Notes under the pieces: model-generated | What the model was told of the DNA's origin: nothing | Database searches by the model: none | What the model saw: the letters and a program-made list of their open reading frames with translations, nothing else | Program-made: the position numbers and the translations under genes | Part shown: positions 964-44,962 of the stretch, in pieces | Layout: each line of letters begins with the position of its first letter | How positions within the stretch are numbered: the stretch's first letter is position 1 | Origin: an uncultured Syntrophus sp. | GTDB lineage: Bacteria; Desulfobacterota; Syntrophia; Syntrophales; UBA5619 | DNA length: 55,512 bases | Direction of reading: 5' to 3' | NCBI GenBank assembly: GCA_964540555.1 | Contig: CAZINF010000004.1 | Span: 1-55,512 of the forward strand

Positions 964-3069
964 ATGGCGAAATACGGCGGATGGGTTGGTAAGGTTCTGC
1001 GGGTCAACCTGTCGAACGGTAAGATCTGGACCGAAGACACGGTTGAAAAATACAAGGACGAACTGGGCGGAACGGGATTGGGATACAGGGTCCTGTGGGA
1101 TGAGGTTCCGGCGGGAACGAAGCCCTTTGATCCCGGGAATAAAATCATTTTCGGCGTCGGTCCTCTGGCCGGGACCGGGGCCCCCTGCAACGGCCGCACG
1201 GCCATCACGACGCTTTTCCCCACCTGCTGGCCGAGACCGCTTGTGGGAACCGGGCATATGGGTGGGCAGTTTGCCGCGGAGCTCAAGTATGCCGGGTACG
1301 ATTCGATTGTCATTGAAGGCAAGGCGGATCGACCCGTGTGGTTGTCGGTCGTCGATAATAAAGTGGAAATCAAGGATGCCCGCAACATCTGGGGGCAGGG
1401 TATCCGGCGGGCAACGATCGAGATTTCCCAGGAACTGGGTCCCGAAGCGGCTGTGGCGGCGATCGGACAGTCGGGAGAGAATCTGGTTCCCATGTCGGTC
1501 GTGATGAACTCCTACTCGCATTCCGCCGGCGGTGTGGGTGCGGTCATGGGATCGAAAAACCTCAAGGCGGTCGGTGTCCGCGGGACCGGCAGTGTGCGGA
1601 TTGCCGGCAGGAGGGATGAATGGGAGAAGCTGGTCAAGGCACACCTTGCTCTCCTGGGGGCCAACAATCAGCATGTGGTGCCCAGCTCTCCCCAACCCTG
1701 GGCCGAATACTACGATCCGTCGTCGCGTTGGAAGGGTTCCAGGGGACGACGATGGGAACAATCATTCCCGGCCATCGAAACGGGGACCTGCAATCCCGGG
1801 GACCTCAACCGAATCGCCTACCGGACAAACAACGCCGCCCATTACCTCGGCGGCATCGGCTGGACATATACCGTCAGGGGAAACGGCTGCAGCGGTTGTC
1901 CGATCCGCTGCCATACCATGATCAAGGTCCCCGCGGTCGCGGCAAAATACGGCATCCCGGACGTCGGACAGAACACGTGCGGCGGTCTGAACTTCGGGCG
2001 TTCCTTCTTCAAAAAATTCCCGGACGGGGCGAGGGGACAGACGAATGTCGAGGCCTGCATGGTGGGGATGCATATCGCCGACGACTATGGCATCTGGTGC
2101 AACTACGGCCAGTTGCAACGGGACTTCAAGAGGATTTACTATGACGGCACGATCAAAGGCAAGCTCGGGGAAAAGGAGTTCAAGAGTTATTCCTGGGATA
2201 AATACGAGAAGGGCGATCCCTCCTTCCTTTTCGAGCTCCTCCCCAGGATTGCCATGAAAGAGGGCGAATTGGGTGCCGTTCTGGGGCTCGGTACCGGGTA
2301 TATGCTGGATAAATGGTCTCTCTCCGAAGCGGTATGGAAGAAAGAGCATGAACTCAGCTACTGGAAGATGGGGCACCCCAAGCACCATGCCAGCGAAGAG
2401 GTCGGCCAGTGCGGGGTGATCATCAATACCCAGTACAATCGCGATGCCCAGTGTCATTCCCACGCCAACTTCACCCGCAACGGGTTGCCGCTGGAAATCC
2501 AGAAGCGTCTGGCGGCAGAGATATGGGGAACGCCGGATGCGGTCGATCACATGGGGTCTTACACGCCGATGAATATCGGTAAAGCGAAGATGGCAAAATG
2601 GTCGCTCATCCGCAAAGAGCTTCATGACTCGTTGTCCCTGTGCAACTGGATGGGACCGTGGGTCGCTTCGCCGTTGAAAGAGCGCGGGTACCGCGGCGAT
2701 GACTCCCTCGAATCCCTGTTGTACAGCCTTGCCACAGGAGACAGGAAGGGCCGGGAGGAATTGGATCGGGCGGGAGAGCGCATATTCCTGCTTCACCGGG
2801 CCCTGACCATCCGTGACATGGGGACCAGGGAGATGCGGACCGAACACGATGCCGTTCCGGAATGGGTCTATCACGATCCTGCAGGCAGACCGGTCTATAC
2901 CAAAGGGACAATCCACCTGGACAAGGGGGATGTTCAACTCGCCATGGAGATGTTTTACGGATTGATGGGATGGGACAAGACCACCGGTTCACCCACGGAG
3001 GATGCCTATCGAAAAGTGGGACTGGGAGCGGTAGCGGAAGAACTGAGGAGGAAAGGGCTTGTCTCCTGA
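964..3069 (+). CDS. ydhV: Aldehyde:ferredoxin oxidoreductase family protein (YdhV-like, Mo/W-bisPT)
   Basis: AOR N-terminus GWVGKVLRVNLS, AGYDSIVIEGKAD, GAVMGSKNLKAV, CSGCPIRC; RBS AGGAGG upstream. Confidence 0.88.
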   Translation: MAKYGGWVGKVLRVNLSNGKIWTEDTVEKYKDELGGTGLGYRVLWDEVPAGTKPFDPGNKIIFGVGPLAGTGAPCNGRTAITTLFPTCWPRPLVGTGHMGGQFAAELKYAGYDSIVIEGKADRPVWLSVVDNKVEIKDARNIWGQGIRRATIEISQELGPEAAVAAIGQSGENLVPMSVVMNSYSHSAGGVGAVMGSKNLKAVGVRGTGSVRIAGRRDEWEKLVKAHLALLGANNQHVVPSSPQPWAEYYDPSSRWKGSRGRRWEQSFPAIETGTCNPGDLNRIAYRTNNAAHYLGGIGWTYTVRGNGCSGCPIRCHTMIKVPAVAAKYGIPDVGQNTCGGLNFGRSFFKKFPDGARGQTNVEACMVGMHIADDYGIWCNYGQLQRDFKRIYYDGTIKGKLGEKEFKSYSWDKYEKGDPSFLFELLPRIAMKEGELGAVLGLGTGYMLDKWSLSEAVWKKEHELSYWKMGHPKHHASEEVGQCGVIINTQYNRDAQCHSHANFTRNGLPLEIQKRLAAEIWGTPDAVDHMGSYTPMNIGKAKMAKWSLIRKELHDSLSLCNWMGPWVASPLKERGYRGDDSLESLLYSLATGDRKGREELDRAGERIFLLHRALTIRDMGTREMRTEHDAVPEWVYHDPAGRPVYTKGTIHLDKGDVQLAMEMFYGLMGWDKTTGSPTEDAYRKVGLGAVAEELRRKGLVS

Positions 3070-3085
3070 TCGGGTATCGATTGAC

Positions 3086-3132
3086 CGGGAGCGCAACCCT
3101 TTAAGCCCCGCCCTGTCGGCGGGTAGCTTCAA
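3086..3132 (+). mobile_element. Collapsed (single-hairpin) copy of the ~107-bp IS200/IS605-type non-autonomous element
   Basis: TGAC|CGGGAGCGCAACCCTTTAAGCCCCGCCCTGTCGGCGGGTAGCTTCAA: the left part matches the 12010 copy and the right part matches that copy's right hairpin and end. Confidence 0.7.
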
Positions 3133-3197
3133 TCCATCCGGCGAGAGGAGGGTTTTAGTCCCCACGCCATGCGAAAAAAAAGAGCAGGACCGGTGAA

Positions 3198-3797
3198 ATG
3201 GACTTAGAAAAAACAGAGGGGCTGGATGAGAAAGAGGATAGGGGGGCCGCCTCAAGGGTCATCGCCGAGCTGATTCGCCGGGGAAGCGAGGAGGGTCGAT
3301 TCGTCACGCACGGCGAGCTGTTTGGAAAACTGATGGAGCGAAATCTCCCGATCCCCGGCGGCGGTGAATTGGGACCTGCTTTTGAAACCCTGATAATGAA
3401 AACCAGGGAAGGGAACGGGGATATCAAGGTGACCCCGGACAGGGACGGATCTCCACGCTACTACTCATCGCTCTTCATGAGCGAGGCCTATTGCGGAATT
3501 CTGTCGAAGAAGGAAGGGGATCCTCTTGTGCTGATCGCCGAGAGTGTGAGGGAAAACTCCGCCGTCTATCCGCGCCCCGTTTCCCTGGAGATGTTCGGAA
3601 ATCCGCCTTTCGATCTGACTCCGGCGGAGGTTCACTCCTGCGTGGAGCAGATGGCCGGTCGGGAAGAATACAAGGATATCGGGCAAATCACCACCTCGGC
3701 GGAGGGTGTTTTCCTCTATTCCAAGTCTTATCTTGAACCGGGCCACGCCGCCATACTCGCCGAATGGCTTGATGTCGGCCAATTTGATCATCCTTGA
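3198..3797 (+). CDS. ydhW: YdhW-family oxidoreductase-system protein
   Basis: Motifs YYSSLFMSEAY, VRENSAVYPRP, FLYSKSYL..A.ILAEW; position after ydhV. Confidence 0.75.
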   Translation: MDLEKTEGLDEKEDRGAASRVIAELIRRGSEEGRFVTHGELFGKLMERNLPIPGGGELGPAFETLIMKTREGNGDIKVTPDRDGSPRYYSSLFMSEAYCGILSKKEGDPLVLIAESVRENSAVYPRPVSLEMFGNPPFDLTPAEVHSCVEQMAGREEYKDIGQITTSAEGVFLYSKSYLEPGHAAILAEWLDVGQFDHP

Positions 3798-3914
3798 ATC
3801 TTCTGCCCTGCTGTTTTTCAGACGGTGTGGAATGCCTTGCGGAGGGCCTCCATCCTCACGCCCGTGTGGAGCAACTCCAGTGCGTCGCGATTTGAGAAGA
3901 AAGAGGAAATAATT

Positions 3915-6560
3915 ATGGGTGAGCTTTTAAAGACAGCTCTGCACGACAAGCATGTTTCCTTCGGCGCCACTATGGTCGATTTCGGCGGCTGGCATATGCC
4001 GCTCCAGTGCGGAACTGGAATTGTGGAAGAACATCTCGCAACGCGGAAGGGGGCCGGGATCTTCGACGTGTCTCATATGGGGCGATTCATCGTCCGCGGC
4101 GCCGGGGCGCTTGCCTTCCTGCAGCACCTCCTTTCCAGCAACGCCGCCGCCCTGGATACCGGCTTTGCGCAGTACACGTTTATTCCCAACGACCGCGGGG
4201 GCGCCCTCGACGACGCCTATCTCTACCGGTTCATACAGGACGAATACCTCCTTGTAGTCAATGCCGCCAACCGGGAGGCCGACTGGTGTTATCTAAAGGA
4301 GATGCTCTCTTTTTTCCCATCGACCCAGATGGAAGACGTCTCCGAATCGATGGCGATGATCTCCCTCCAGGGGCCCTCTTCCCGGGCCATTCTCCAGGAT
4401 CTGCTCGGCTCAGGCGGTTTGCCGGAACCCATGAAGAATGCCTGTAGATCGGTTTCCATCAGCGGAAAAAAGGTACTTATATCCCGGACCGGCTACACAG
4501 GCGAGCCCCTCGGTTTTGAATTCTTCTTTGCTGCTGCCGACGCTCCGTGGCTCTGGGGTCTCTTCCTCGATAAGGGTGCAATCCCGGTGGGGCTGGGGGC
4601 GCGGGACACCCTGAGGCTTGAAGCAGGCTTGCCCCTTTTCGGTCATGAACTGGGAAATGATCCCGCCGGAAAAGAGATCCCCATCTTCGCCTGCCCCCTG
4701 GCCCGTTTCGCCGTGAGTTTCTCTTCCCTGAAAGGTGCGTTCATCGGGCAGGAGGCGCTTGCAATCCAGTTTGCCGCCTTCAAGAAGATCAAGGATGAAG
4801 ATTACACCTCGATCGAGGACCTGCCGCGGATAGTCATGCCTTTTGCACTCCGCGGAAGGGGGGTTGCCAGGGCGGGATTTCGCGTGTTTAAGGGTTCGGG
4901 GGAAGTCGGTTTCGTAACGAGTGGCACGATGGTTCCGTACTGGAAGACAGCGGGCACGGGGCTTTCGACGCGTTTTACCGGTGAGCGGGAGATGCGGGCC
5001 ATCGGCCTGATGCTGGTCGATAGCCGTCTCAAGAAAGACGATTCGGTGGAGATTGAGATCAGAGGAAACCGGATTGATGCGGTTGTGGTTCCCTATCACC
5101 TGCGTTCGGACGCGCCTCCTTATGCCATGCCGATTCTGCCGCGTCCCGTGGAGGACCGGGGAAAATCAATTTCCGACGCTTGGCAGGATAAAACCTTTGA
5201 TCTACTGGAGAAGGCAATTCAAAACACCCTCTGGCGGCAGACCGAGTGTATCAACCTCATCCCGTCGGAACAGACGGCCTCGTCGATGGTGCGGCGTCTA
5301 TCGATGCTGGATCCCGCCTTCCGCTACGCCGAGCATCGCCCCCTCCGATCTTACTATGATGCGGAAGTCTTCTACTACCAGGGAACGGATTTTATCGAAG
5401 GCGTAGAGGAGCTACTCAAGGAGGAGATGGTCCGTTACCTGGGCTGCCGGAAGGTGGAGGCCAGGGTGATCAGCGGCCAGATGGCCAACTCCGTCGTCTT
5501 CAGCGCCCTCGTCGATTACCTTAACAGGGGTGATCGGAAGACGGAACCCCGGCGGCTCGGCTCGGTCCTGAACAACCACATGATCCGGGGCGGCCACCTG
5601 AGCGCCCAGCCGATGGGCGCCCTTCACCATTTCGTCCGGATCGATCCGCGGACGGAAAAACCAGCCGTCGTGAACTTTCCGGTTCTGCAAGAGGATCCCT
5701 ACAAGATCGACGTGGAGGCGACCTGCCGGATCATCGACGAACACCGGCCGGAGCTGATCATCTTCGGCAAGAGCATGGTCCTCTACCGCGAACCAGTTCG
5801 GGAGATCCGGGACTTCCTTCGGGAGCAAAAGATCGAAGCCATTATCCTCTACGACATGGCCCACGTTCTGGGGCTGGTGGGACCCTACTTCCAGGAGCCG
5901 TTCGACGAAGGGGCGGACCTGGTCACCGGCTCCACCCACAAGACCTTCTTCGGCACCCAGCGGGGAATCGTTGCCGGGAACTGGCGGGAAGAGGAAAAGC
6001 AGTATGCCCTTTGGGAGTCCGTGGAGAACCGGACCTTTCCGGGAAGCGTCAGCAACCACCACCCGGGAACCCTTTCGGGATTGCTGATGGCCGCCTATGA
6101 GATGAACTGTTTCCGGGATGCCTACCAACAGGCGGTCATCCGGAATGCGAAGGCCTTTGCCCGGGCGCTCCGGGATGCGGGTTTGCAGGTGGCGGGCGAT
6201 CCGGCGATCTCTTTTACGGAGACCCATCAGGTGATCGTAAAGGTGGAATATGCCAGGGCGGTGGAGGCGGCCCGCCGGCTCGAGGAGAGCAACATCATCT
6301 GCAACTTCCAGGCGGCGCCGGACGAAGAGGGGTTTACCGCGGCCGGAGCCCTCCGGATGGGCGTGCAGGAGATGACGCGGTTCGGCATGGGGCCGGAGGA
6401 TTTCCTGACGCTGGCCCAGTACATCCACGACGTTGTGGCGGGTGGCCGTTTGGTCCGGGAAGAGGTGACGGCATTCCGGAAGCGCTTCCTTGTGATGGAC
6501 TATTGCTTTACGGAAGATATGTTCATTGATCTGATGGATAAGCTGCACCGTTTAGTATAA
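3915..6560 (+). CDS. gcvT-glyA: Fusion of glycine cleavage T protein (aminomethyltransferase) and serine hydroxymethyltransferase
   Basis: N-half has FDVSHMG, SRTGYTGE, GLGARDTLRLEAGL; C-half has INLIPSE, GGHLS, YDMAHVLGLV and the PLP-lysine motif TGSTHKT; ATG 3915 follows a GAGG RBS. Confidence 0.9.
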   Translation: MGELLKTALHDKHVSFGATMVDFGGWHMPLQCGTGIVEEHLATRKGAGIFDVSHMGRFIVRGAGALAFLQHLLSSNAAALDTGFAQYTFIPNDRGGALDDAYLYRFIQDEYLLVVNAANREADWCYLKEMLSFFPSTQMEDVSESMAMISLQGPSSRAILQDLLGSGGLPEPMKNACRSVSISGKKVLISRTGYTGEPLGFEFFFAAADAPWLWGLFLDKGAIPVGLGARDTLRLEAGLPLFGHELGNDPAGKEIPIFACPLARFAVSFSSLKGAFIGQEALAIQFAAFKKIKDEDYTSIEDLPRIVMPFALRGRGVARAGFRVFKGSGEVGFVTSGTMVPYWKTAGTGLSTRFTGEREMRAIGLMLVDSRLKKDDSVEIEIRGNRIDAVVVPYHLRSDAPPYAMPILPRPVEDRGKSISDAWQDKTFDLLEKAIQNTLWRQTECINLIPSEQTASSMVRRLSMLDPAFRYAEHRPLRSYYDAEVFYYQGTDFIEGVEELLKEEMVRYLGCRKVEARVISGQMANSVVFSALVDYLNRGDRKTEPRRLGSVLNNHMIRGGHLSAQPMGALHHFVRIDPRTEKPAVVNFPVLQEDPYKIDVEATCRIIDEHRPELIIFGKSMVLYREPVREIRDFLREQKIEAIILYDMAHVLGLVGPYFQEPFDEGADLVTGSTHKTFFGTQRGIVAGNWREEEKQYALWESVENRTFPGSVSNHHPGTLSGLLMAAYEMNCFRDAYQQAVIRNAKAFARALRDAGLQVAGDPAISFTETHQVIVKVEYARAVEAARRLEESNIICNFQAAPDEEGFTAAGALRMGVQEMTRFGMGPEDFLTLAQYIHDVVAGGRLVREEVTAFRKRFLVMDYCFTEDMFIDLMDKLHRLV

Positions 6561-11159: not shown

Positions 11160-12008
11160 ATGACTGTACATCGCTTCCTGCGTCAAATCTTACTGGTATT
11201 GTGTCTGTCTATCATGGCCGCCGTGTGCGTTTTCGCTCAGGCGCCGACGGGAAAAGAGGAATATCAACCGTCGGTCGGCCAGCACGGCAAGGATGTGATA
11301 TGGGTGCCGACTGCGCAGGCGCTGGCCGACAAAATGTTGAGCCTGGCGCAGGTCACGCCGCAGGATTACGTGATCGACCTCGGTTCGGGTGACGGACGCT
11401 TCGTCATCACGGCCGCGAAGCGCGGCGCTCGCGCACACGGAATCGAATACAATCCCGATATGGTTGAGCTGTCGAAGCGCAACGCCGCCAGGGAAGGGGT
11501 CGCCGACAAAGCCACTTTCGTCAAGGCGGACCTGTTCGAGAGCGATTTTTCCACGGCAACGGTGATCACCATGTTTCTCCTGCCCGAAATCAACCTGAGG
11601 CTTCGCCCGTTGATTCTCGATCTCAAGCCCGGCACCCGCATCGTTTCCACTTCTTTTGATATGGGGGATTGGACGGCCGAGCAGACGATCACGTTGACCA
11701 AGGAAGAGGGGTGTGACAACAATTATTGCCAGGCCTATTTTTGGATCGTGCCGGCCAAAGTCGCGGGCGCATGGAAGCTTCCCCAGGGCGAACTCAGGCT
11801 CACGCAAAACTACCAGATGGTTTCCGGTGATTTGCATTCCGGTAAGAATCGCACATCCGTTGCCGATGGCCGCCTCACAGGCAGCCAGATCAGCTTCAAG
11901 ATCAGCGATGCCCACTATACCGGGAACATCGTCGGCGCCGCTATGGAGGGGACGGTCAAATCGGGTAACAACAGCGCCCCGTGGAGTGCGAAGCGGCTGG
12001 CAAACTGA
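11160..12008 (+). CDS. Secreted class I SAM-dependent methyltransferase-fold protein
   Basis: Signal peptide, DVIWVPT, SAM motif IDLGSGDGR, DLKPGTRIVS; its stop codon TGA is part of the TGAC target of the adjacent element. Confidence 0.8.
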   Translation: MTVHRFLRQILLVLCLSIMAAVCVFAQAPTGKEEYQPSVGQHGKDVIWVPTAQALADKMLSLAQVTPQDYVIDLGSGDGRFVITAAKRGARAHGIEYNPDMVELSKRNAAREGVADKATFVKADLFESDFSTATVITMFLLPEINLRLRPLILDLKPGTRIVSTSFDMGDWTAEQTITLTKEEGCDNNYCQAYFWIVPAKVAGAWKLPQGELRLTQNYQMVSGDLHSGKNRTSVADGRLTGSQISFKISDAHYTGNIVGAAMEGTVKSGNNSAPWSAKRLAN

Positions 12009-12009
12009 C

Positions 12010-12117
12010 CGGGAGCGCATCCCTTTAAGCCCCGCCTAGTAGGCGGGGTTGAGTGGCGCATCGACATATGAACGATTCCTTGCCGGGAAGCCCCGCCCTG
12101 TGGGCGGGGAGCTTCAC
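12010..12117 (+). mobile_element. 108-bp non-autonomous IS200/IS605-type element (two subterminal hairpins)
   Basis: Follows TGAC; left hairpin CCCCGCCTAGTAGGCGGGG, right hairpin CCCCGCCCTGTGGGCGGGG, ends GCTTCAC; closely similar to 34639-34745. Confidence 0.85.
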
Positions 12118-13998
12118 GTGTGCCCGGCATGGGCAGCAGCTTGGGGGTGCAAGTCCCCTGCAGGTCCTGATGGTGGAAACTGTTAGCCAAGGGCAAGGGC
12201 GTCCATCGTGAGGTGGGGTCTGAAGGAAGCCGGAGGCAAAACGCCGATCTGAGGAACACGAATCGCATATCAGGCTGTATCATCAGGGCGAGCTTACGTG
12301 ATAAGGCAAAGCCCATAACCATCAAGTGGTGATGCAGTAAATGCGGCGGATGTGGCGGGAAGGCGGCTGTTCTTACCCGGGGAGGTCTGCGAGCTTGTCG
12401 ATGGCGACTAAGGATTCCGTAAGGGATTTTGAGGGGTTCGCAGAAGTCAGCAGAGGCCATAATAGGCCCGGCGTAAGCCGGGCTGAAGGGCCGAACAGGT
12501 AGCCGGAGGCGAGGCTCAAGGATTCGTGGTCGTGGCGATGCAGCAACTTTCATTATTCGATGAAACCCTTCTTTCAAGTCCTCCGGGTGAAGCCCGCGGG
12601 GATGACGGCAAGGCGCACCAAGCGGCGGCGGCATCGGAGAGAACCAAACCCATGGTGGTTGATTTGATGGATCATGTTGTCAACAGAGAGAACCTGATCC
12701 GGGCGCTGAAACGGGTCCGTGCGAACAAAGGCAGCCCAGGCGTAGACGGCATGACCGTTGACGACCTGACGGGCTATCTGCGGGAGCACTGGCAGCCGAT
12801 TCGGGAAAGGTTGTTGAGAGGAGATTACTGCCCTCAGCCGGTCAAGGAGGTTTTGATTCCCAAACCCGGCGGCGGAACCAGACAGCTCGGCATACCCACG
12901 GTACTGGATCGATTTATCGAGCAGGCGATCCTGCAGGTTCTCGATCCCATATTTGACCCGACCTTTTCGATTCACAGCTATGGTTTTCGTCCTCATCGTC
13001 GTGCCCATCAGGCGGTGACCCAGGCGAAGCGATACGTTGCGGAAGGATACGAATGGGTGGTCGATATGGACCTGGAAAAGTTCTTCGACCGGGTGAACCA
13101 TGATATTCTCATGGGGAAACTGGCCAAAAGAATCGGGGACAAGAGAGTCCTCCGGGTCATCCGCAGGTATTTACAAGCCGGGATCATGGTCAACGGGGTC
13201 GTACAGGAGCGATGGGAAGGAACGCCCCAGGGCGGACCTTTATCGCCGCTGCTCAGTAATATCCTTCTCGACGAATTGGACAAGGAGCTGGAAGGGAGAG
13301 GGCATCGGTTCTGCCGATACGCGGATGATGCGAACGTGTACGTGAAGTCGCAGCGTGCCGGGGAACGGGTGTTCGAATCCATAGAGAGATTTCTCCTCAA
13401 AAGGTTAAAGCTTCGGGTCAATCGTACGAAAAGTGCTGTTGTCCGATACCATGAGCGGGGCTTTCTGGGATTCGGTTTTACCTCCGGGAAGAACCTGAAG
13501 ATCAAACTGACCGATACATCCTTGATGCGCTTTAAGGATCGGATCAGGGAGATTACCAGGCGATCCCGTGGCATACCGCTTGTCCAAGTCATGGAGGAGC
13601 TGGGTGTGTTCCTCCGCGGCTGGATAGGGTACTTCAGGCTGATCGAGACACTGACGATCCTCAAAGATCTGGATAGCTGGATACGGCGAAGGCTGCGTTG
13701 TTTCATGGTCAAGCGATGGATCAACAACTGCCACACCCGGTACAGAAATCTGGTCAAACTGGGCGTCAATGGCTGGCAGGCCTGTATGGCGGCAGCATCC
13801 CACAAGGGTCCTTGGGCGATGTCCAATATGAAACCGCTCAAGATCGCCATGTCCAATCGTTACTTTACCGAGCATGGGTTTCGGAGCCTCTTTGATCAAT
13901 ATCAGGCATTTGGCAAGGCGACTTGAACCGCCGTGTACGGACCCGTATGCCCGGTGGTGTGGGAGGGCGAAGGCCGTGAGGCCTTCCCCTATCCCGAT
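12118..13998 (+). mobile_element. Complete group II intron, class IIC-like
   Basis: 5' end GTGTGCCCGGCATGGG; short domain V GAACCGCCGTGTACGGACCCGTATGCCCGGTGGT; domain VI ending CCTATCCCGAT; RT ORF inside; inserted just downstream of a hairpin. Confidence 0.92.
12538..13926 (+). CDS. ltrA: Group II intron reverse transcriptase/maturase (no endonuclease domain)
   Basis: NKGSPGVDG, RQLGIPTVLDR, SYGFRP, DLEKFFDRVNH, GTPQGGPLSPLL, RYADD, X-domain GWIGYF..WIRRRLR; no HNH motif seen; start uncertain. Confidence 0.95.
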   Translation: MQQLSLFDETLLSSPPGEARGDDGKAHQAAAASERTKPMVVDLMDHVVNRENLIRALKRVRANKGSPGVDGMTVDDLTGYLREHWQPIRERLLRGDYCPQPVKEVLIPKPGGGTRQLGIPTVLDRFIEQAILQVLDPIFDPTFSIHSYGFRPHRRAHQAVTQAKRYVAEGYEWVVDMDLEKFFDRVNHDILMGKLAKRIGDKRVLRVIRRYLQAGIMVNGVVQERWEGTPQGGPLSPLLSNILLDELDKELEGRGHRFCRYADDANVYVKSQRAGERVFESIERFLLKRLKLRVNRTKSAVVRYHERGFLGFGFTSGKNLKIKLTDTSLMRFKDRIREITRRSRGIPLVQVMEELGVFLRGWIGYFRLIETLTILKDLDSWIRRRLRCFMVKRWINNCHTRYRNLVKLGVNGWQACMAAASHKGPWAMSNMKPLKIAMSNRYFTEHGFRSLFDQYQAFGKAT

Positions 13999-16146
13999 TC
14001 AGATCGCCATGACAAACAGGGCGTCCGCGACCACCGGTTTTGAGCCCGCGATGATGACGGGGTTGAGGTCGATTTCGGTGATCGCCGGGTGGAGAAGGGC
14101 AATGGCGCCGATCGCCTGAAGGATGGCGGCGAGGGCCGGCAGGTCGACGGCGGGAAGGCCGCGGAACTCGCCCAGAAGATCGCTTGCGCGGATCGCGAAG
14201 AGTAGCTCCTCCGCCTCGGTCACGCTCAGCGGCGCCGAGCGGAAGGCGGCGTCCTTGAGCGCTTCGGTGAAGACGCCGCCGAGGCCGAAGAGGACGCAGG
14301 GGCCGAAGCCGGGAAAGCGGGTCATCCCGGCGACGAACTCGCGGCGCCCCGACACCATCTCCTGGACAAGGACCGGAATCTTCCGTCCCGCCGCTTTTCG
14401 GACGGCGCGGAAAGCCTGGCGCAGGGCCGCTTCGGTCCGGATGTCCAGGGCGATGAGCCCCTTTCCACTCTTATGCATGATCTCCCAGGCGCAGGCCTTC
14501 ACGGCGAGCGGGAAGCCGATTCTCCTTGAAATTTCCAAGGCCACGTTTTCGGTCGAGGCTTTCTCCTCGCGGGTGACGGGAACGCCGTAGGCGGCGAGGA
14601 CCTGTTTCGCCTGATGCTCGTCCAGGGCATTCTGCCCGGCGGCGAGCGCGGACCTGATGATCCGGGCGGCCTCCGGATTTTCGGTCGGGAGGGCCGGTTT
14701 CACAAAGGGTTTCCGTTCGCGGATTTCCTTGTACCTCAGCAGAGACGCCATACCCCGCGCCGCCTTCTCCGGCGAGTCAAAGACGGGAATGTCATGGTCC
14801 ATGTACGAAGCGGTGCTGTCGTCATCACGGCCGAAAAATGAGGAGATCACCAGGGGGAGATGATATTTTTGAGGCAGCCCCGCCGCGGTGGTCATGTCCC
14901 TTGTCGCCAGTTCAAGAAAGGTCTCCCGGGAGATGCCGCCCAGCAGTTCACTCACGTGGGAATAGACCATCTTCATGAAGCCGGAACTTATCGCCCCGTG
15001 GAGGACCAGGCCGTCCGCCTCGCCGCTTTCCATGATGAGCTCGGGGATGGTGACGGCCAGGACCTGCATATCCGTGTGGTAGGTGAGATCCACCGGGTTG
15101 ACGCCGGCGGCGTGGGGCGGGATCAACGGTCGGATCTTCGCCTGCAGGGCGTCGGAAAAGCGGGGGAGCGTCATGCCTCCCAGGTCGGCGTAATGGGAGA
15201 TTGCCGTTCCCGGGCCCCCGGAATTGGTGACGACGGCGAGCCTGTTGCCGCGGAGTCGCGGCTGGGTGGCGTGGACCCACCCGTGGGCGTAAAGGTCCTC
15301 GATGGAGTAGCAGCGGATGATCCCGGCCTGCTGGAAGATGCCGTCGTAGAGGAGATCGGGACCGGCGAGCGCCCCGGTGTGGCTGAGGCCCGCCCTGGCC
15401 CCGGCAGCCGATCCGCCGACGTACTGGGCGAGGACCGGCTTTAACGGCGTGATCCGCCGTGCGGTTTCGATCAGTCGCCTGCCGTCGCGGGTCCCCTCGA
15501 TGTAAAGGATGATCGCCTTCGTCTGTTCGTCTTCGCCTAAGTATTCAAGGACGTCGATCATGTCGATATCGGCCTCGTTCCCGCAGCTTACCGCCTTGCT
15601 GAAGCGGATTCCCCGCTCCCGGAGGTAGGCCAGCGTCTGGGTCACGTAGGTGCCGCTCTGCGAGACGAGGCCGAGGTGGCCGGGGCGTTTTTCCAGGGCG
15701 GAAATGGTGACGTTCAGGGGGATGGCGGTGTTCAGGATCCCGATGCAGTTCGGGCCGAGAAAGCGCATCCCGGATGCCGCGGCGATCGCCGTCAGACGTT
15801 CCTCAAGCTCCCGCCCGGCGGGGCCGGTCTCCTTGAATCCGCCGCTGATGATGATCGCCCGCTTCGTCCCGATCTTCGCAAAATCTTCGAGGACGGGGGC
15901 GACCTGGTCCGTCGGGACAACCAGCACGGCGAGGTCCGGGGTTTCGGGGAGGTCGAGCGGCGAGGCATAGGCCTTGTGGCCGAGGACCGTCTTTTCGGTG
16001 GGATGGATGGGATAAAAAGCCCCTTGCCAGCCGTCCTTGAGGATGGACAGCGCCTGGAGGGTCCCCATTTTCATCGGATTGTTGCTCGCGCCGGCGACGG
16101 CAATGGAGCGGGGGTGCAGAAGCAGATGCAGCGGATTGTCCGGCAT
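13999..16146 (-). CDS. ADP-forming acetate/acyl-CoA ligase (fused alpha+beta)
   Basis: PRSIAVAGAS, RFLGPNCIG, SHTGALAG, VTNSGGPG, ATP-grasp C-terminus with EIDLNP. Confidence 0.9.
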   Translation of the reverse strand: MPDNPLHLLLHPRSIAVAGASNNPMKMGTLQALSILKDGWQGAFYPIHPTEKTVLGHKAYASPLDLPETPDLAVLVVPTDQVAPVLEDFAKIGTKRAIIISGGFKETGPAGRELEERLTAIAAASGMRFLGPNCIGILNTAIPLNVTISALEKRPGHLGLVSQSGTYVTQTLAYLRERGIRFSKAVSCGNEADIDMIDVLEYLGEDEQTKAIILYIEGTRDGRRLIETARRITPLKPVLAQYVGGSAAGARAGLSHTGALAGPDLLYDGIFQQAGIIRCYSIEDLYAHGWVHATQPRLRGNRLAVVTNSGGPGTAISHYADLGGMTLPRFSDALQAKIRPLIPPHAAGVNPVDLTYHTDMQVLAVTIPELIMESGEADGLVLHGAISSGFMKMVYSHVSELLGGISRETFLELATRDMTTAAGLPQKYHLPLVISSFFGRDDDSTASYMDHDIPVFDSPEKAARGMASLLRYKEIRERKPFVKPALPTENPEAARIIRSALAAGQNALDEHQAKQVLAAYGVPVTREEKASTENVALEISRRIGFPLAVKACAWEIMHKSGKGLIALDIRTEAALRQAFRAVRKAAGRKIPVLVQEMVSGRREFVAGMTRFPGFGPCVLFGLGGVFTEALKDAAFRSAPLSVTEAEELLFAIRASDLLGEFRGLPAVDLPALAAILQAIGAIALLHPAITEIDLNPVIIAGSKPVVADALFVMAI

Positions 16147-16345
16147 GCGTTTCCTCTCTTTTTCGGGTGGATCATCCTGGGTGCGAACAGGAGCCGAGGC
16201 ACTATAGGCAATCCTGGATGCCCTGTCAAGCAAGTCGCCCTTGGGTCGGATAAATTTCTTGACACGATGCATAATTGTTGTCCATCATGATGCATACAAA
16301 AACGAAGCTCGTATATTAATTGTTGGGATTTACGAAAGGACACGA

Positions 16346-34618: not shown

Positions 34619-34930
34619 TCGCCCTTTTCAGCGATGACCGGGAGCGCATCCCGCAAGCCCCGCCTTGTAGACGGGGTTGGGGGGCGCATCGAAAAAAGAA
34701 CACTTCCTTGCCGGGAAGCCCCGCCCTGTGGGCGGGGAGCTTCACTTTGGCGATTCTCTGAAAAAACACTCAGCCCTGAAAAAGATCGTCCAGAAAAAGA
34801 TGGATATGGTTCTCACGAATCCCGTCGAGCTCGGTGAACCCTTGAAGGGGAGTTTACGCGGTTATTACAGCGTCCCGGTGAAGAAAGACTTCCTCATCAT
34901 TTACCTTTATTACTTGATTTGCAACCGAGG
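34615..34930 (+). pseudogene. RelE/ParE-family toxin interrupted by the 107-bp element and apparently truncated at its 3' end
   Basis: Removing 34639-34745 gives MIALFSDD|FGDSLKKHSALKKIVQKKMDMVLTNPVELGEPLKGSLRGYYSVPVKKDFLIIY. Confidence 0.75.
34639..34745 (+). mobile_element. 107-bp non-autonomous IS200/IS605-type element
   Basis: TGAC|CGGGAGCGCATCCCGCAAGCCCCGCC...GAAGCCCCGCCCTGTGGGCGGGGAGCTTCAC|; no target duplication; precise removal restores the toxin frame. Confidence 0.9.
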
Positions 34931-43951: not shown

Positions 43952-44962
43952 CTATGGGCGATCGGCCAACCATTTTCGGGCTGCCGGGCTGCCCAGCCGG
44001 GCAGCCTTGCGCATATCCCCCCGACACCGTCCTTTTTGGCCGACCCCCAAATACGCCGTTGCGCGCCAGTAGTAGACGGACGGGAACGAGGGGGCGATCG
44101 CCGCGGCTTTGGTGAAGTCGGCGATGGCGAGTGCGTATTGCTTTTGCTTCAGATAGGCAAACCCGCGGTCGTAATAAGCCCAGGCGTAATTGACATCCGT
44201 CTCCAGGGTCTTATCGAAATCCTCGATTGCCGAGGCATACAGGCCCTGCCTGCTCAGGATCAGGCCACGGTTGTACGTGGCCCAGGCGAAGCCGGAATCG
44301 ATCATCATCGCACGATTGTACTCCTCGATGGCCTGGTCAGGTCGGCCCAGCGTCCGCAGAGACGCACCGAGATGATAGAGGGCCCAGACATGTTTCGTGT
44401 CCAATGACAGGGCCTTACGAAAATCCCCGGCAGCCTTTTCCGCATGGCCCTTCAGGCGAAAGGCGATCCCCCGGCTATAGTAGGCCCATGCTTCGTTCGG
44501 GTCATCCGTGACGGTTTTGGAGTATTCCTCAATTTCCCGGTCATCCCATTTCTCCATGCCGCTTTCCGACCGTTCTATATCCGGGGGCAGGGCTGTTGCC
44601 TTGCTGTAGTCCTCTGTTTCCCGGTCAAAATGGCCTTTCCTACCGTAAGCCAAGGAGCGCCTGTAATACGCCGCCGCATCACCCGGGTCCCTGAGGATGG
44701 CGAGAGAGTACTCCTCGATCGCCCGGTCATGCCTGCCTGTTTTGTCCAGGACCAGGCCGCGGCTGTAATAGGCCCTTGCGCACCGAGGCGCTCGCGCAAC
44801 TGCCTTGTCCAGCGCCGCCATGGCTTCGTTATAGGCGCCCCGCCGGAGATGGTCCTGCCCCCTGGGCAGCCACTCCCCGGCTTTCAGACAGGGATCCGCA
44901 GCCATCCCGGTCGCAGCCCGGAGAAAAAACAAGACCAGGCAACCCGAGAACCATTTTTTCAT
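43952..44962 (-). CDS. Exported tetratricopeptide repeat protein
   Basis: Signal peptide; repeated AYY.RG...A..DF.KA units. Confidence 0.85.
   Translation of the reverse strand: MKKWFSGCLVLFFLRAATGMAADPCLKAGEWLPRGQDHLRRGAYNEAMAALDKAVARAPRCARAYYSRGLVLDKTGRHDRAIEEYSLAILRDPGDAAAYYRRSLAYGRKGHFDRETEDYSKATALPPDIERSESGMEKWDDREIEEYSKTVTDDPNEAWAYYSRGIAFRLKGHAEKAAGDFRKALSLDTKHVWALYHLGASLRTLGRPDQAIEEYNRAMMIDSGFAWATYNRGLILSRQGLYASAIEDFDKTLETDVNYAWAYYDRGFAYLKQKQYALAIADFTKAAAIAPSFPSVYYWRATAYLGVGQKGRCRGDMRKAARLGSPAARKWLADRP

Follow-up and report, generated by a model that had tools for sequence, protein, structure and literature searches.

The DNA examined here, referred to as the window, is a stretch of 55,512 nucleotides from an uncultured Syntrophus sp. 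(assembly GCA_964540555.1, contig CAZINF010000004.1), whose genome assembly (G000) comprises 323 contigs and is 85.8% complete; G, C and L numbers below are our designations for genomes, contigs and loci. The + strand, to which coordinates refer unless stated otherwise, contains a 108-bp repeat (12010..12117) and, directly adjoining it, a group IIC intron (12118..13998, 1881 nt). To their left, the first three bases of a TGAC (12006..12009), the presumed insertion target of the repeat, are the stop codon of an open reading frame (ORF) at 11160-12008. To their right, the T at position +1 of the intron's 3' exon (13999), the probable intron-binding site 3 (IBS3), is the first base of the complemented stop codon of a minus-strand ORF (13999-16272). 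The repeat and the intron together fill the space between two convergent genes that were formerly one base apart (12006-12008; 13999-14001). An earlier note on this DNA proposed that the intron is specialized for homing into the right ends of elements of the IS200/IS605 type, and the comparisons described below make it very probable that it belongs to a lineage of single origin that habitually inserts into DNA at the right end of IS200-type single-strand transposons.

The Window Contains an Intact-Looking Group IIC Intron

The intron begins with GTGTG (GUGUG in RNA) at 12118 and ends with ..CCCGAT (..GAU) at 13998. Three Rfam families matched within these boundaries, namely RF02001 (domain I) at 12202-12371 with 146 bits, RF01998 at 12408-12491 with 66 bits, and RF00029 (domains V and VI) at 13926-13998; the last of these scored 38 bits, slightly below the gathering score of 40, and its match ended at the last intron base. 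In the RF00029 alignment, the triad of domain V is CGC (within ..CCGCCG..), and the ribozyme without its ORF is ~480 nt long. A small ribozyme and a CGC triad in domain V are hallmarks of group IIC. The intron encodes a reverse transcriptase (RT)/maturase of 466 amino acids (12526..13926), in which Pfam detected the RVT_1 and GIIM domains and nothing else, and no endonuclease domain is present. This protein matched TIGR04416 with 420 bits, and its best solved relative was the GsI-IIC RT (6ar1, 499.6 bits), followed by other IIC proteins (E. rectale IIC RT, 356.7 bits), whereas scores were far weaker for proteins of group IIA (LtrA, 137 bits) and group IIB (6me0, 135 bits).

The Rfam matches to domains I and V/VI, the endonuclease-free RT/maturase and the GsI-IIC RT as closest solved relative bear out the earlier assignment to group IIC. 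Taken with the short pairing (~4 bp) between exon-binding site 1 (EBS1) and IBS1, and with insertion downstream of a stem-loop (8 nt from the end of the core hairpin to the junction), they identify the sequence as a complete, intact-looking intron of bacterial class C. Contigs from an RNA library (X14) covered the intron at ~97% likeness, a weak hint of transcription given that DNA carry-over is possible, and the intron may be active at the present day. The GC skew changes sign along the window and gives no replication direction.

The Intron Junction Coincides with the Boundary of the 108-bp Repeat

The repeat contains no ORF and folds into two hairpins on the same strand. The left one lies at 12029-12049, and the right one has a stem formed by 12091-12098 and 12102-12109, which is extended, across a 2-nt bulge, by 12087-12090 and 12112-12115. 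Folded as single-stranded DNA, the element reached -31.1 kcal/mol (z = -3.9). A sister copy elsewhere in the window (34639..34745) is empty, preceded by TGAC (34635-34638), terminated by TCAC (34742-34745) and followed by T, and a short form with a single hairpin, found by BLAST at 3086..3132, ends with TCAA. BLAST detected ~47 right ends of this family in the window's genome, in long two-hairpin and short one-hairpin forms, and the family was present in 12 of the 14 congeneric genomes searched.

With stricter patterns, 61 left ends and 80 right ends were collected from the window's genome. TGAC stood directly left of 41 of the 61 left ends, with no conservation at positions -5 to -8. Right ends had the form ..CTTCAC in 40 of 80 cases and ended with CAA in 11, and the base that followed was not conserved (A 32, T 23, G 15, C 10; n = 80). 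Since likeness among the 80 right ends stops after ..CTTCAC, the junction between repeat and intron is the boundary of the element and not a chance overlap. The same point was marked by contigs that diverged directly after 12117, of which there were 13, 8 and 7 in three sequencing runs. These results agree with what had been noted before, that the first intron base (12118) directly follows the TCAC at 12114..12117, that the sister copy has the same end, and that the insertion point is exactly the element boundary.

Orthologous loci without the element were found in two congeners. In G006, the two convergent genes lie 1 base apart with the element absent, and in G010, the orthologous gene ends with ..GCAAACTGAC (..AAACTGAC), lacks the element, and is followed by unrelated sequence. 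Together with the TGAC at left ends, these loci indicate that a TGAC was already present when the element inserted 3' of it, and that no duplication resulted. Relatives with a transposase gene were seen in G027, a genome of the same order, where three copies, tnpA-bearing or solo, have in common with the window's element the right-end hairpin GCCCCGCCCTGTGGGCGGGG followed by 4 nt and TCAC. The end of the window's element, ..GGGCGGGG-AGCT-TCAC, corresponds there to ..GGGCGGGG-TTAT-TCAC behind tnpA, a few dozen bases past the tnpA stop codon.

Like IS200/IS605 elements, the repeat lacks terminal inverted repeats and carries an imperfect subterminal hairpin at each end, its insertions lie 3' of a fixed tetranucleotide with no target duplication, and its right end combines a hairpin with a conserved cleavage tetranucleotide at a fixed distance and is homologous to that of tnpA-bearing elements. 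Judged from its sequence, the 108-bp repeat thus behaves like an IS200/IS605 element in all respects but the transposase, and it would be at most a non-autonomous derivative, comparable to miniature inverted-repeat or palindrome-associated transposable elements. We also considered the repeat as a repetitive extragenic palindrome (REP) served by a REP-associated tyrosine transposase (RAYT), and set this reading aside. The RAYT-like protein encoded in the assembly has 222 amino acids (C7:36267-36590; L001 1195-1863, minus strand) and matched NF047646 (REP_Tyr_transpos) with 69.8 bits against a cut-off of 80; its gene is not flanked by the repeat, the nearest copy on C7 being at ~44484-44590.

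Close Relatives of the Intron Lie Behind IS200 Transposase Genes

Insertion sites of related introns were collected from the 80 best RT relatives in a genome collection and the 80 best in metagenome contigs, and intron 5' ends were located with the first 423 bases of the window's intron (nhmmer). From 116 junction rows, 6 with a mis-projected start were dropped, and 98 unique junctions were left; a further 35 hit rows had no locatable 5' end. Junctions were counted as unique by their last 30 nt, which does not imply independent events. The 40 junctions whose intron had an RT at least 60% identical to that of the window, or a similar 5' part, are referred to as the close clade, and the other 58 as distant relatives. 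Upstream genes were scored at assessable junctions, defined as those with at least 600 nt of upstream sequence or with a tnpA seen (30 close, 52 distant).

An IS200 tnpA on the same strand as the intron was found 39-111 nt upstream of 18 of the 30 assessable close-clade junctions, and upstream of none of the 52 distant ones. Pfam assigned Y1_Tnp (112-147 bits) to all ten tnpA ORFs examined, including one that belongs to a G027 copy of IS200 without an intron. Ten more close-clade flanks lacked tnpA and had left-end and/or right-end homology to tnpA-bearing loci, and at two metagenome loci (L152, L187) the flank was a miniature made of the left and right ends of a tnpA-bearing IS200, like the element in the window. 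Where the 5' flank was assembled, the closest relatives from the genome collection (L009, L010, L012/L014, L013, L017 and L020) all lay directly behind Y1_Tnp genes. Conversely, T-rich flanks (five or more T among the final ten bases), which represent the classical terminator target, were present at 48 of the 58 distant junctions versus 7 of the 40 in the close clade. The earlier note had proposed to test whether the 5' flanks of close RT homologs are IS200/IS605 right ends, and this distribution supports it.

The IS200-linked introns were also grouped by their RT sequences. In a quick IQ-TREE analysis of 84 rows (after pruning L020_767, a non-RT ORF with a branch length of 10), the 26 IS200-linked rows shared an ancestor spanning 37 tips, none of which was of the terminator type, and the Shimodaira-Hasegawa-like approximate likelihood ratio test (SH-aLRT) gave this clade a value of 99. 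Outside it were 35 terminator-type rows and 12 others. FastTree recovered the same IS200-linked clade.

EBS1 Covaries with the Last Four Bases of the 5' Exon

In the Rfam alignment of domain I, the consensus helix GCUU/AGGC (12292-12295 with 12304-12307) closes an 8-nt loop (12296-12303), forming a hairpin at 12292..12307. Positions 3-6 of the loop are GUGA (12298-12301), which forms four of four pairs with the terminal TCAC of the element, IBS1 of the intron. The earlier note had drawn this GTGA in a loop enclosed by a CTTA/TAAG stem; its position in a domain I hairpin loop stood, and the stem did not, since the A-U pair it requires (12296/12302) exists in this copy only and close relatives carry C.

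Pairing between loop positions 3-6 and the last four exon bases was scored at 91 unique junctions, giving a mean of 3.53 pairs out of 4, with 57 junctions fully paired. Shuffled pairings had a mean of 2.15 +/- 0.09, and none of 5000 shuffles reached the observed value. In the close clade, the exon base at -1 and the first EBS1 base formed C:G in 23 junctions, T:A in 9 and T:G in 4, and failed to pair in 2 (n = 38); GUGA goes with exon ends in ..AC and AUGA with those in ..AT, and one or the other was present at 34 of the 40 close-clade junctions. In a second, decayed IIC intron of the same genome (C67), loop positions 3-6 are ACAA and the 5' exon ends with UUGU. By its covariation with the last exon bases, GUGA at 12298-12301 is EBS1, as had been predicted.

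Features beside IBS1 were also conserved. The first base of the 3' exon was T at 29 of 31 unique 3' junctions in the close clade, versus 31 of 58 in distant relatives, and this T fits a putative fixed pair between EBS3 and IBS3. The gap between hairpin and junction was most often 7-8 nt in the close clade (21 of 39; median 7), and terminator-targeting relatives had a median of 6 nt. From these comparisons, the target appears to consist of a GC-rich hairpin, a spacer that sets the distance from the hairpin foot to the junction at 7-8 nt, a T-N-A-Y terminus and a following T. Two further observations concern these right ends. At IS200 ends with TGAC or TGAT, the intron retains G at the third EBS1 position, and none was seen with the matching C. 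At many close-clade right ends (e.g., L160, L162 and L181), pairing is possible between the terminal nucleotides and those immediately 5' of the hairpin foot, which recalls the contact between guide and cleavage site at the ends of IS200/IS605 elements.

These data also bear on whether the lineage is specialized at all. IIC introns are known to take varied stem-loops, including terminators and attC sites, and a generic hairpin-seeker might be found at IS200 ends merely because they are common GC-rich hairpins; the similar spacing in the two clades and the 11 of 40 close-clade junctions that could not be tied to IS200 ends would be as expected for such an intron. Generic hairpin-seeking does not, however, account for the difference between close and distant junctions in upstream tnpA and in T-rich flanks, for the confinement of all IS200-linked rows to one clade, or for an EBS1 of GUGA or AUGA that matches the conserved T-N-A-Y end. 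We consider the absence of lineage-level specialization quite unlikely, and a specialized lineage remains the preferred reading.

Order of Insertion and Independence of Intron and Element

Near-identical introns were found behind clearly different elements. The introns at L013 and L014 are 99.4% identical, while the TnpA proteins beside them are 57% identical, which points to separate insertions (L012 and L014 represent one duplicated or variant locus, 96% identical over 4.9 kb including the 3' flank, and were not counted as independent). Copies with ~95% RT identity to the window's intron lie behind at least five different end types. In a groundwater run, the 5' end of the intron, with a single difference over 168 nt, was found behind a different, G005-type IS200 end, and the intron-less form of this end is present in L124. 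The L013 genome contained no intron-less full copy of its IS200, only truncated copies and one solo right end.

It could be argued that the order of events was reversed, and that elements landed 3' of an IBS1-like TGAC, between an older intron and its 5' exon. The TGAC in the window would form three of four pairs with GUGA, and the presumed ancestral site (..ACTGAC followed by TCAG..) also has T at +1. That ancestral 5' exon would, however, be without the hairpin that IIC introns need, and the perfect match of four pairs is to the element's own end, not to TGAC. Further, because diverse elements stand before near-identical introns, reversal would require many different elements to have hit one and the same junction. 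We regard a reversed order as very improbable, and insertion of the intron behind an element already in place as the probable sequence of events.

Orientation was the same for intron and tnpA at all 18 tnpA-linked junctions, and the intron directly abuts the element, both of which would be expected if the two formed one composite mobile unit moving as DNA, the group II counterpart of the group I IStrons. In contrast to this expectation, the element boundary that the 80 right ends define leaves the intron outside, no second right-end-like motif was seen behind the intron, and identical introns are paired with divergent IS200s. Intron-less copies are also the rule: the window's genome has 13 empty ends of the form T(C/T)A(C/T) followed by T, and one that is occupied, and empty copies were also seen in G027 and for the G005-type end (L124). 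One of the 13 is the end at 34745, which the earlier note had singled out as an empty landing pad, and which is indeed a matching, unoccupied target. A composite unit is therefore hardly credible, and intron and element are better regarded as separate entities, the first of which appears to home to the second.

Observations That Weigh Against Specialized Homing

A number of observations do not favor this interpretation or narrow it. The 108-bp element has no ORF, and thus lacks the Y1 (HUH) TnpA that an IS200/IS605 element should have of its own; neither a canonical IS200 tnpA nor TnpB was found in the window's assembly at its 85.8% completeness, and the sole Y1 gene there is the RAYT-like one, 8 kb from the nearest repeat. 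With no transposase in the element and no canonical tnpA in the assembly, the label "IS200-type" rests on anatomy and relatives. The exact right boundary of canonical IS200 copies was deduced from their layout, and T follows TCAC in all three G027 copies, so that their end may lie one base further. Most of the tnpA-linked flanks come from metagenome contigs, and the 11 close-clade junctions that could not be tied to IS200 ends include L180, with two of four pairs, and one intron that lies behind another. A G.G mismatch at -3 was present at 16 of 38 close-clade junctions, at TGAC-type ends, and its frequency indicates that the effective reading is T-N-A-Y and not strict TCAC. Occupation of 1 of 14 matching ends in the window's genome suggests that homing is rare or recent, and no joint of 12117 to 13999, representing a spliced form or an empty locus, was found in the contigs of four public sequencing runs, which cannot reveal rare forms. 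With both the EBS1 pairing and the flanks of relatives in its favor, the interpretation of specialized homing is supported, qualified in that the window's element has no transposase and that the site read is in effect T-N-A-Y instead of a strict TCAC.

Other Intron Copies and Relics

The window's genome contains further intron sequences. The second IIC intron, on C67 (L007 ~3846-2429, minus strand), is of the same Rfam type and lies after an ordinary GC hairpin and not after the repeat; its first bases are GUACG, the 5' part of its RT gene is missing, and its EBS1 (ACAA) matches its exon end (UUGU). The 3' part of an intron, cut by the contig end, is present at C17:1-667 (L006), and a 5'-truncated 3' fragment of ~130 nt at C15:~1745-1874 (L005); both end with ..CGAT followed by T. 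In congeners, relics 84-99% alike to the window's intron were found at L104 (G005:C14), L106 (G007:C176) and L120 (G009:C15); two are 3' fragments (85 and 157 nt) and the third has an internal deletion, and one of the fragments follows a terminator-like hairpin with a T-run.

Among the relatives, five introns (L186:1751, L025:2513, L072:4318, L077:4317 and L216:1351) start directly after the domain VI hairpin of another copy (..CCGA or ..CCGAT), as tandem or nested copies, and in some of them the first base is changed. In an E. coli record (NZ_CP100530.1, L231), a decayed class C intron at ~2761-4235 adjoins an antisense fragment of an InsQ/TnpB pseudogene. This single record was not retained as a supporting case, as no right-end hairpin was seen beside the intron relic.

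Discussion

The mechanism that we envisage is that of an ordinary IIC intron, and what is new is the class of target. The intron ribonucleoprotein would recognize a stem-loop in DNA, as in other IIC introns, while EBS1 (GUGA; AUGA in relatives) would pair with the element's four terminal bases and EBS3 probably with the T at +1, and the intron would reverse-splice into that strand precisely at the element boundary. As the intron has no endonuclease, it would then be copied from a replication primer. The hairpin may be read in single-stranded DNA at the replication fork, a mode of reading that is accepted for IS200/IS605 transposases as well as for IIC introns. At the window locus, the element would have arrived first, 3' of TGAC in the one-base spacer between the convergent genes, and the intron second, between the TCAC of the element and the neighboring stop codon. 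Because the intron is outside the element, cleavage by TnpA after TCAC should remain possible, and would leave the intron behind. Compared with terminator-targeting relatives, the change lies in EBS1, from A/U-rich to GUGA or AUGA, and hence in which class of hairpin qualifies as a target.

A broader proposal, about which we have slightly more doubt than conviction, is that IS200/IS605-type single-strand transposons have a dedicated parasite in this IIC lineage. The intron would read the folded-DNA signals that TnpA also reads, the subterminal hairpin and the terminal tetranucleotide, while their common template is transiently single-stranded, so that each transposition of an IS200 or of a miniature derivative would create a new landing pad. 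The pairing between intron and transposon might be old and extend across phyla (the records involved are titled Deltaproteobacteria and Aminicenantes), and it might feed back on the transposon, for example if read-through from tnpA were to express the intron, or if excision of the element were to alter the 5' exon.

If the interpretation is true, endonuclease-free retroelements would once again have switched their host site by adjusting EBS1 at four positions, with recognition of the hairpin left as it was. The lineage would also illustrate clearly how a retroelement can specialize on a DNA transposon, a multicopy element that supplies safe, intergenic, hairpin-bearing landing pads, and it would be a natural system in which to study possible competition at the replication fork, with IIC introns and Y1 transposases drawing on the same single-stranded DNA. 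For annotation, IS200 ends that are followed by ~1.9 kb of "extra" sequence in genomes and metagenome-assembled genomes could then be labeled correctly.

For IIC introns, intrinsic terminators and the attC sites of integrons have been described as the two classes of target, and IS200-type ends would be a third. A full-text literature search found no report of IIC introns at the right ends of IS200/IS605 elements, subscription journals and supplementary files being outside its scope. The terminator-targeting class C introns, such as B.h.I1 and GsI-IIC, share with the window's lineage the ribozyme families RF02001, RF01998 and RF00029, an endonuclease-free RT, a 4-bp EBS1-IBS1 pairing, and insertion a few bases past a DNA stem-loop. 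Unlike theirs, the window's target has no T-run, its hairpin is the subterminal one of an IS200-type element, its end is T-N-A-Y, and the RTs form a clade of their own. The IIC-attC introns (e.g., S.ma.I2) are a IIC sublineage that shifted from terminators to integron attC sites, and they offer the parallel of an intron that exploits the folded, single-stranded site at which another mobile system recombines, and reads the same hairpin as the recombinase of that system; attC is read by IntI, whereas the right end of IS200 is read by a Y1 (HUH) transposase.

Other associations of group II introns with transposons or repeats involve different arrangements. The F4 group II introns of Thermosynechococcus elongatus, which are not known to be class C, resemble the present case in their repeated use of one conserved site of an IS200-family element. 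That element is ISEL1, and the insertions lie in the element, with no target made up of a boundary and a hairpin described in the passage concerned (PMC2882425). In Pseudomonas putida, group II introns were associated with REP sequences in 2 of 9 copies (PMC1525189). The IStrons (PMC4227781) combine a group I intron with IS200/IS605 genes, and provide another example of a self-splicing intron intimately paired with an IS200/IS605 element. They are, however, single chimeric DNA transposons with a group I ribozyme, whereas the ribozyme at the window locus is of group II and belongs to a retroelement that lies outside the element boundary and would move by itself.

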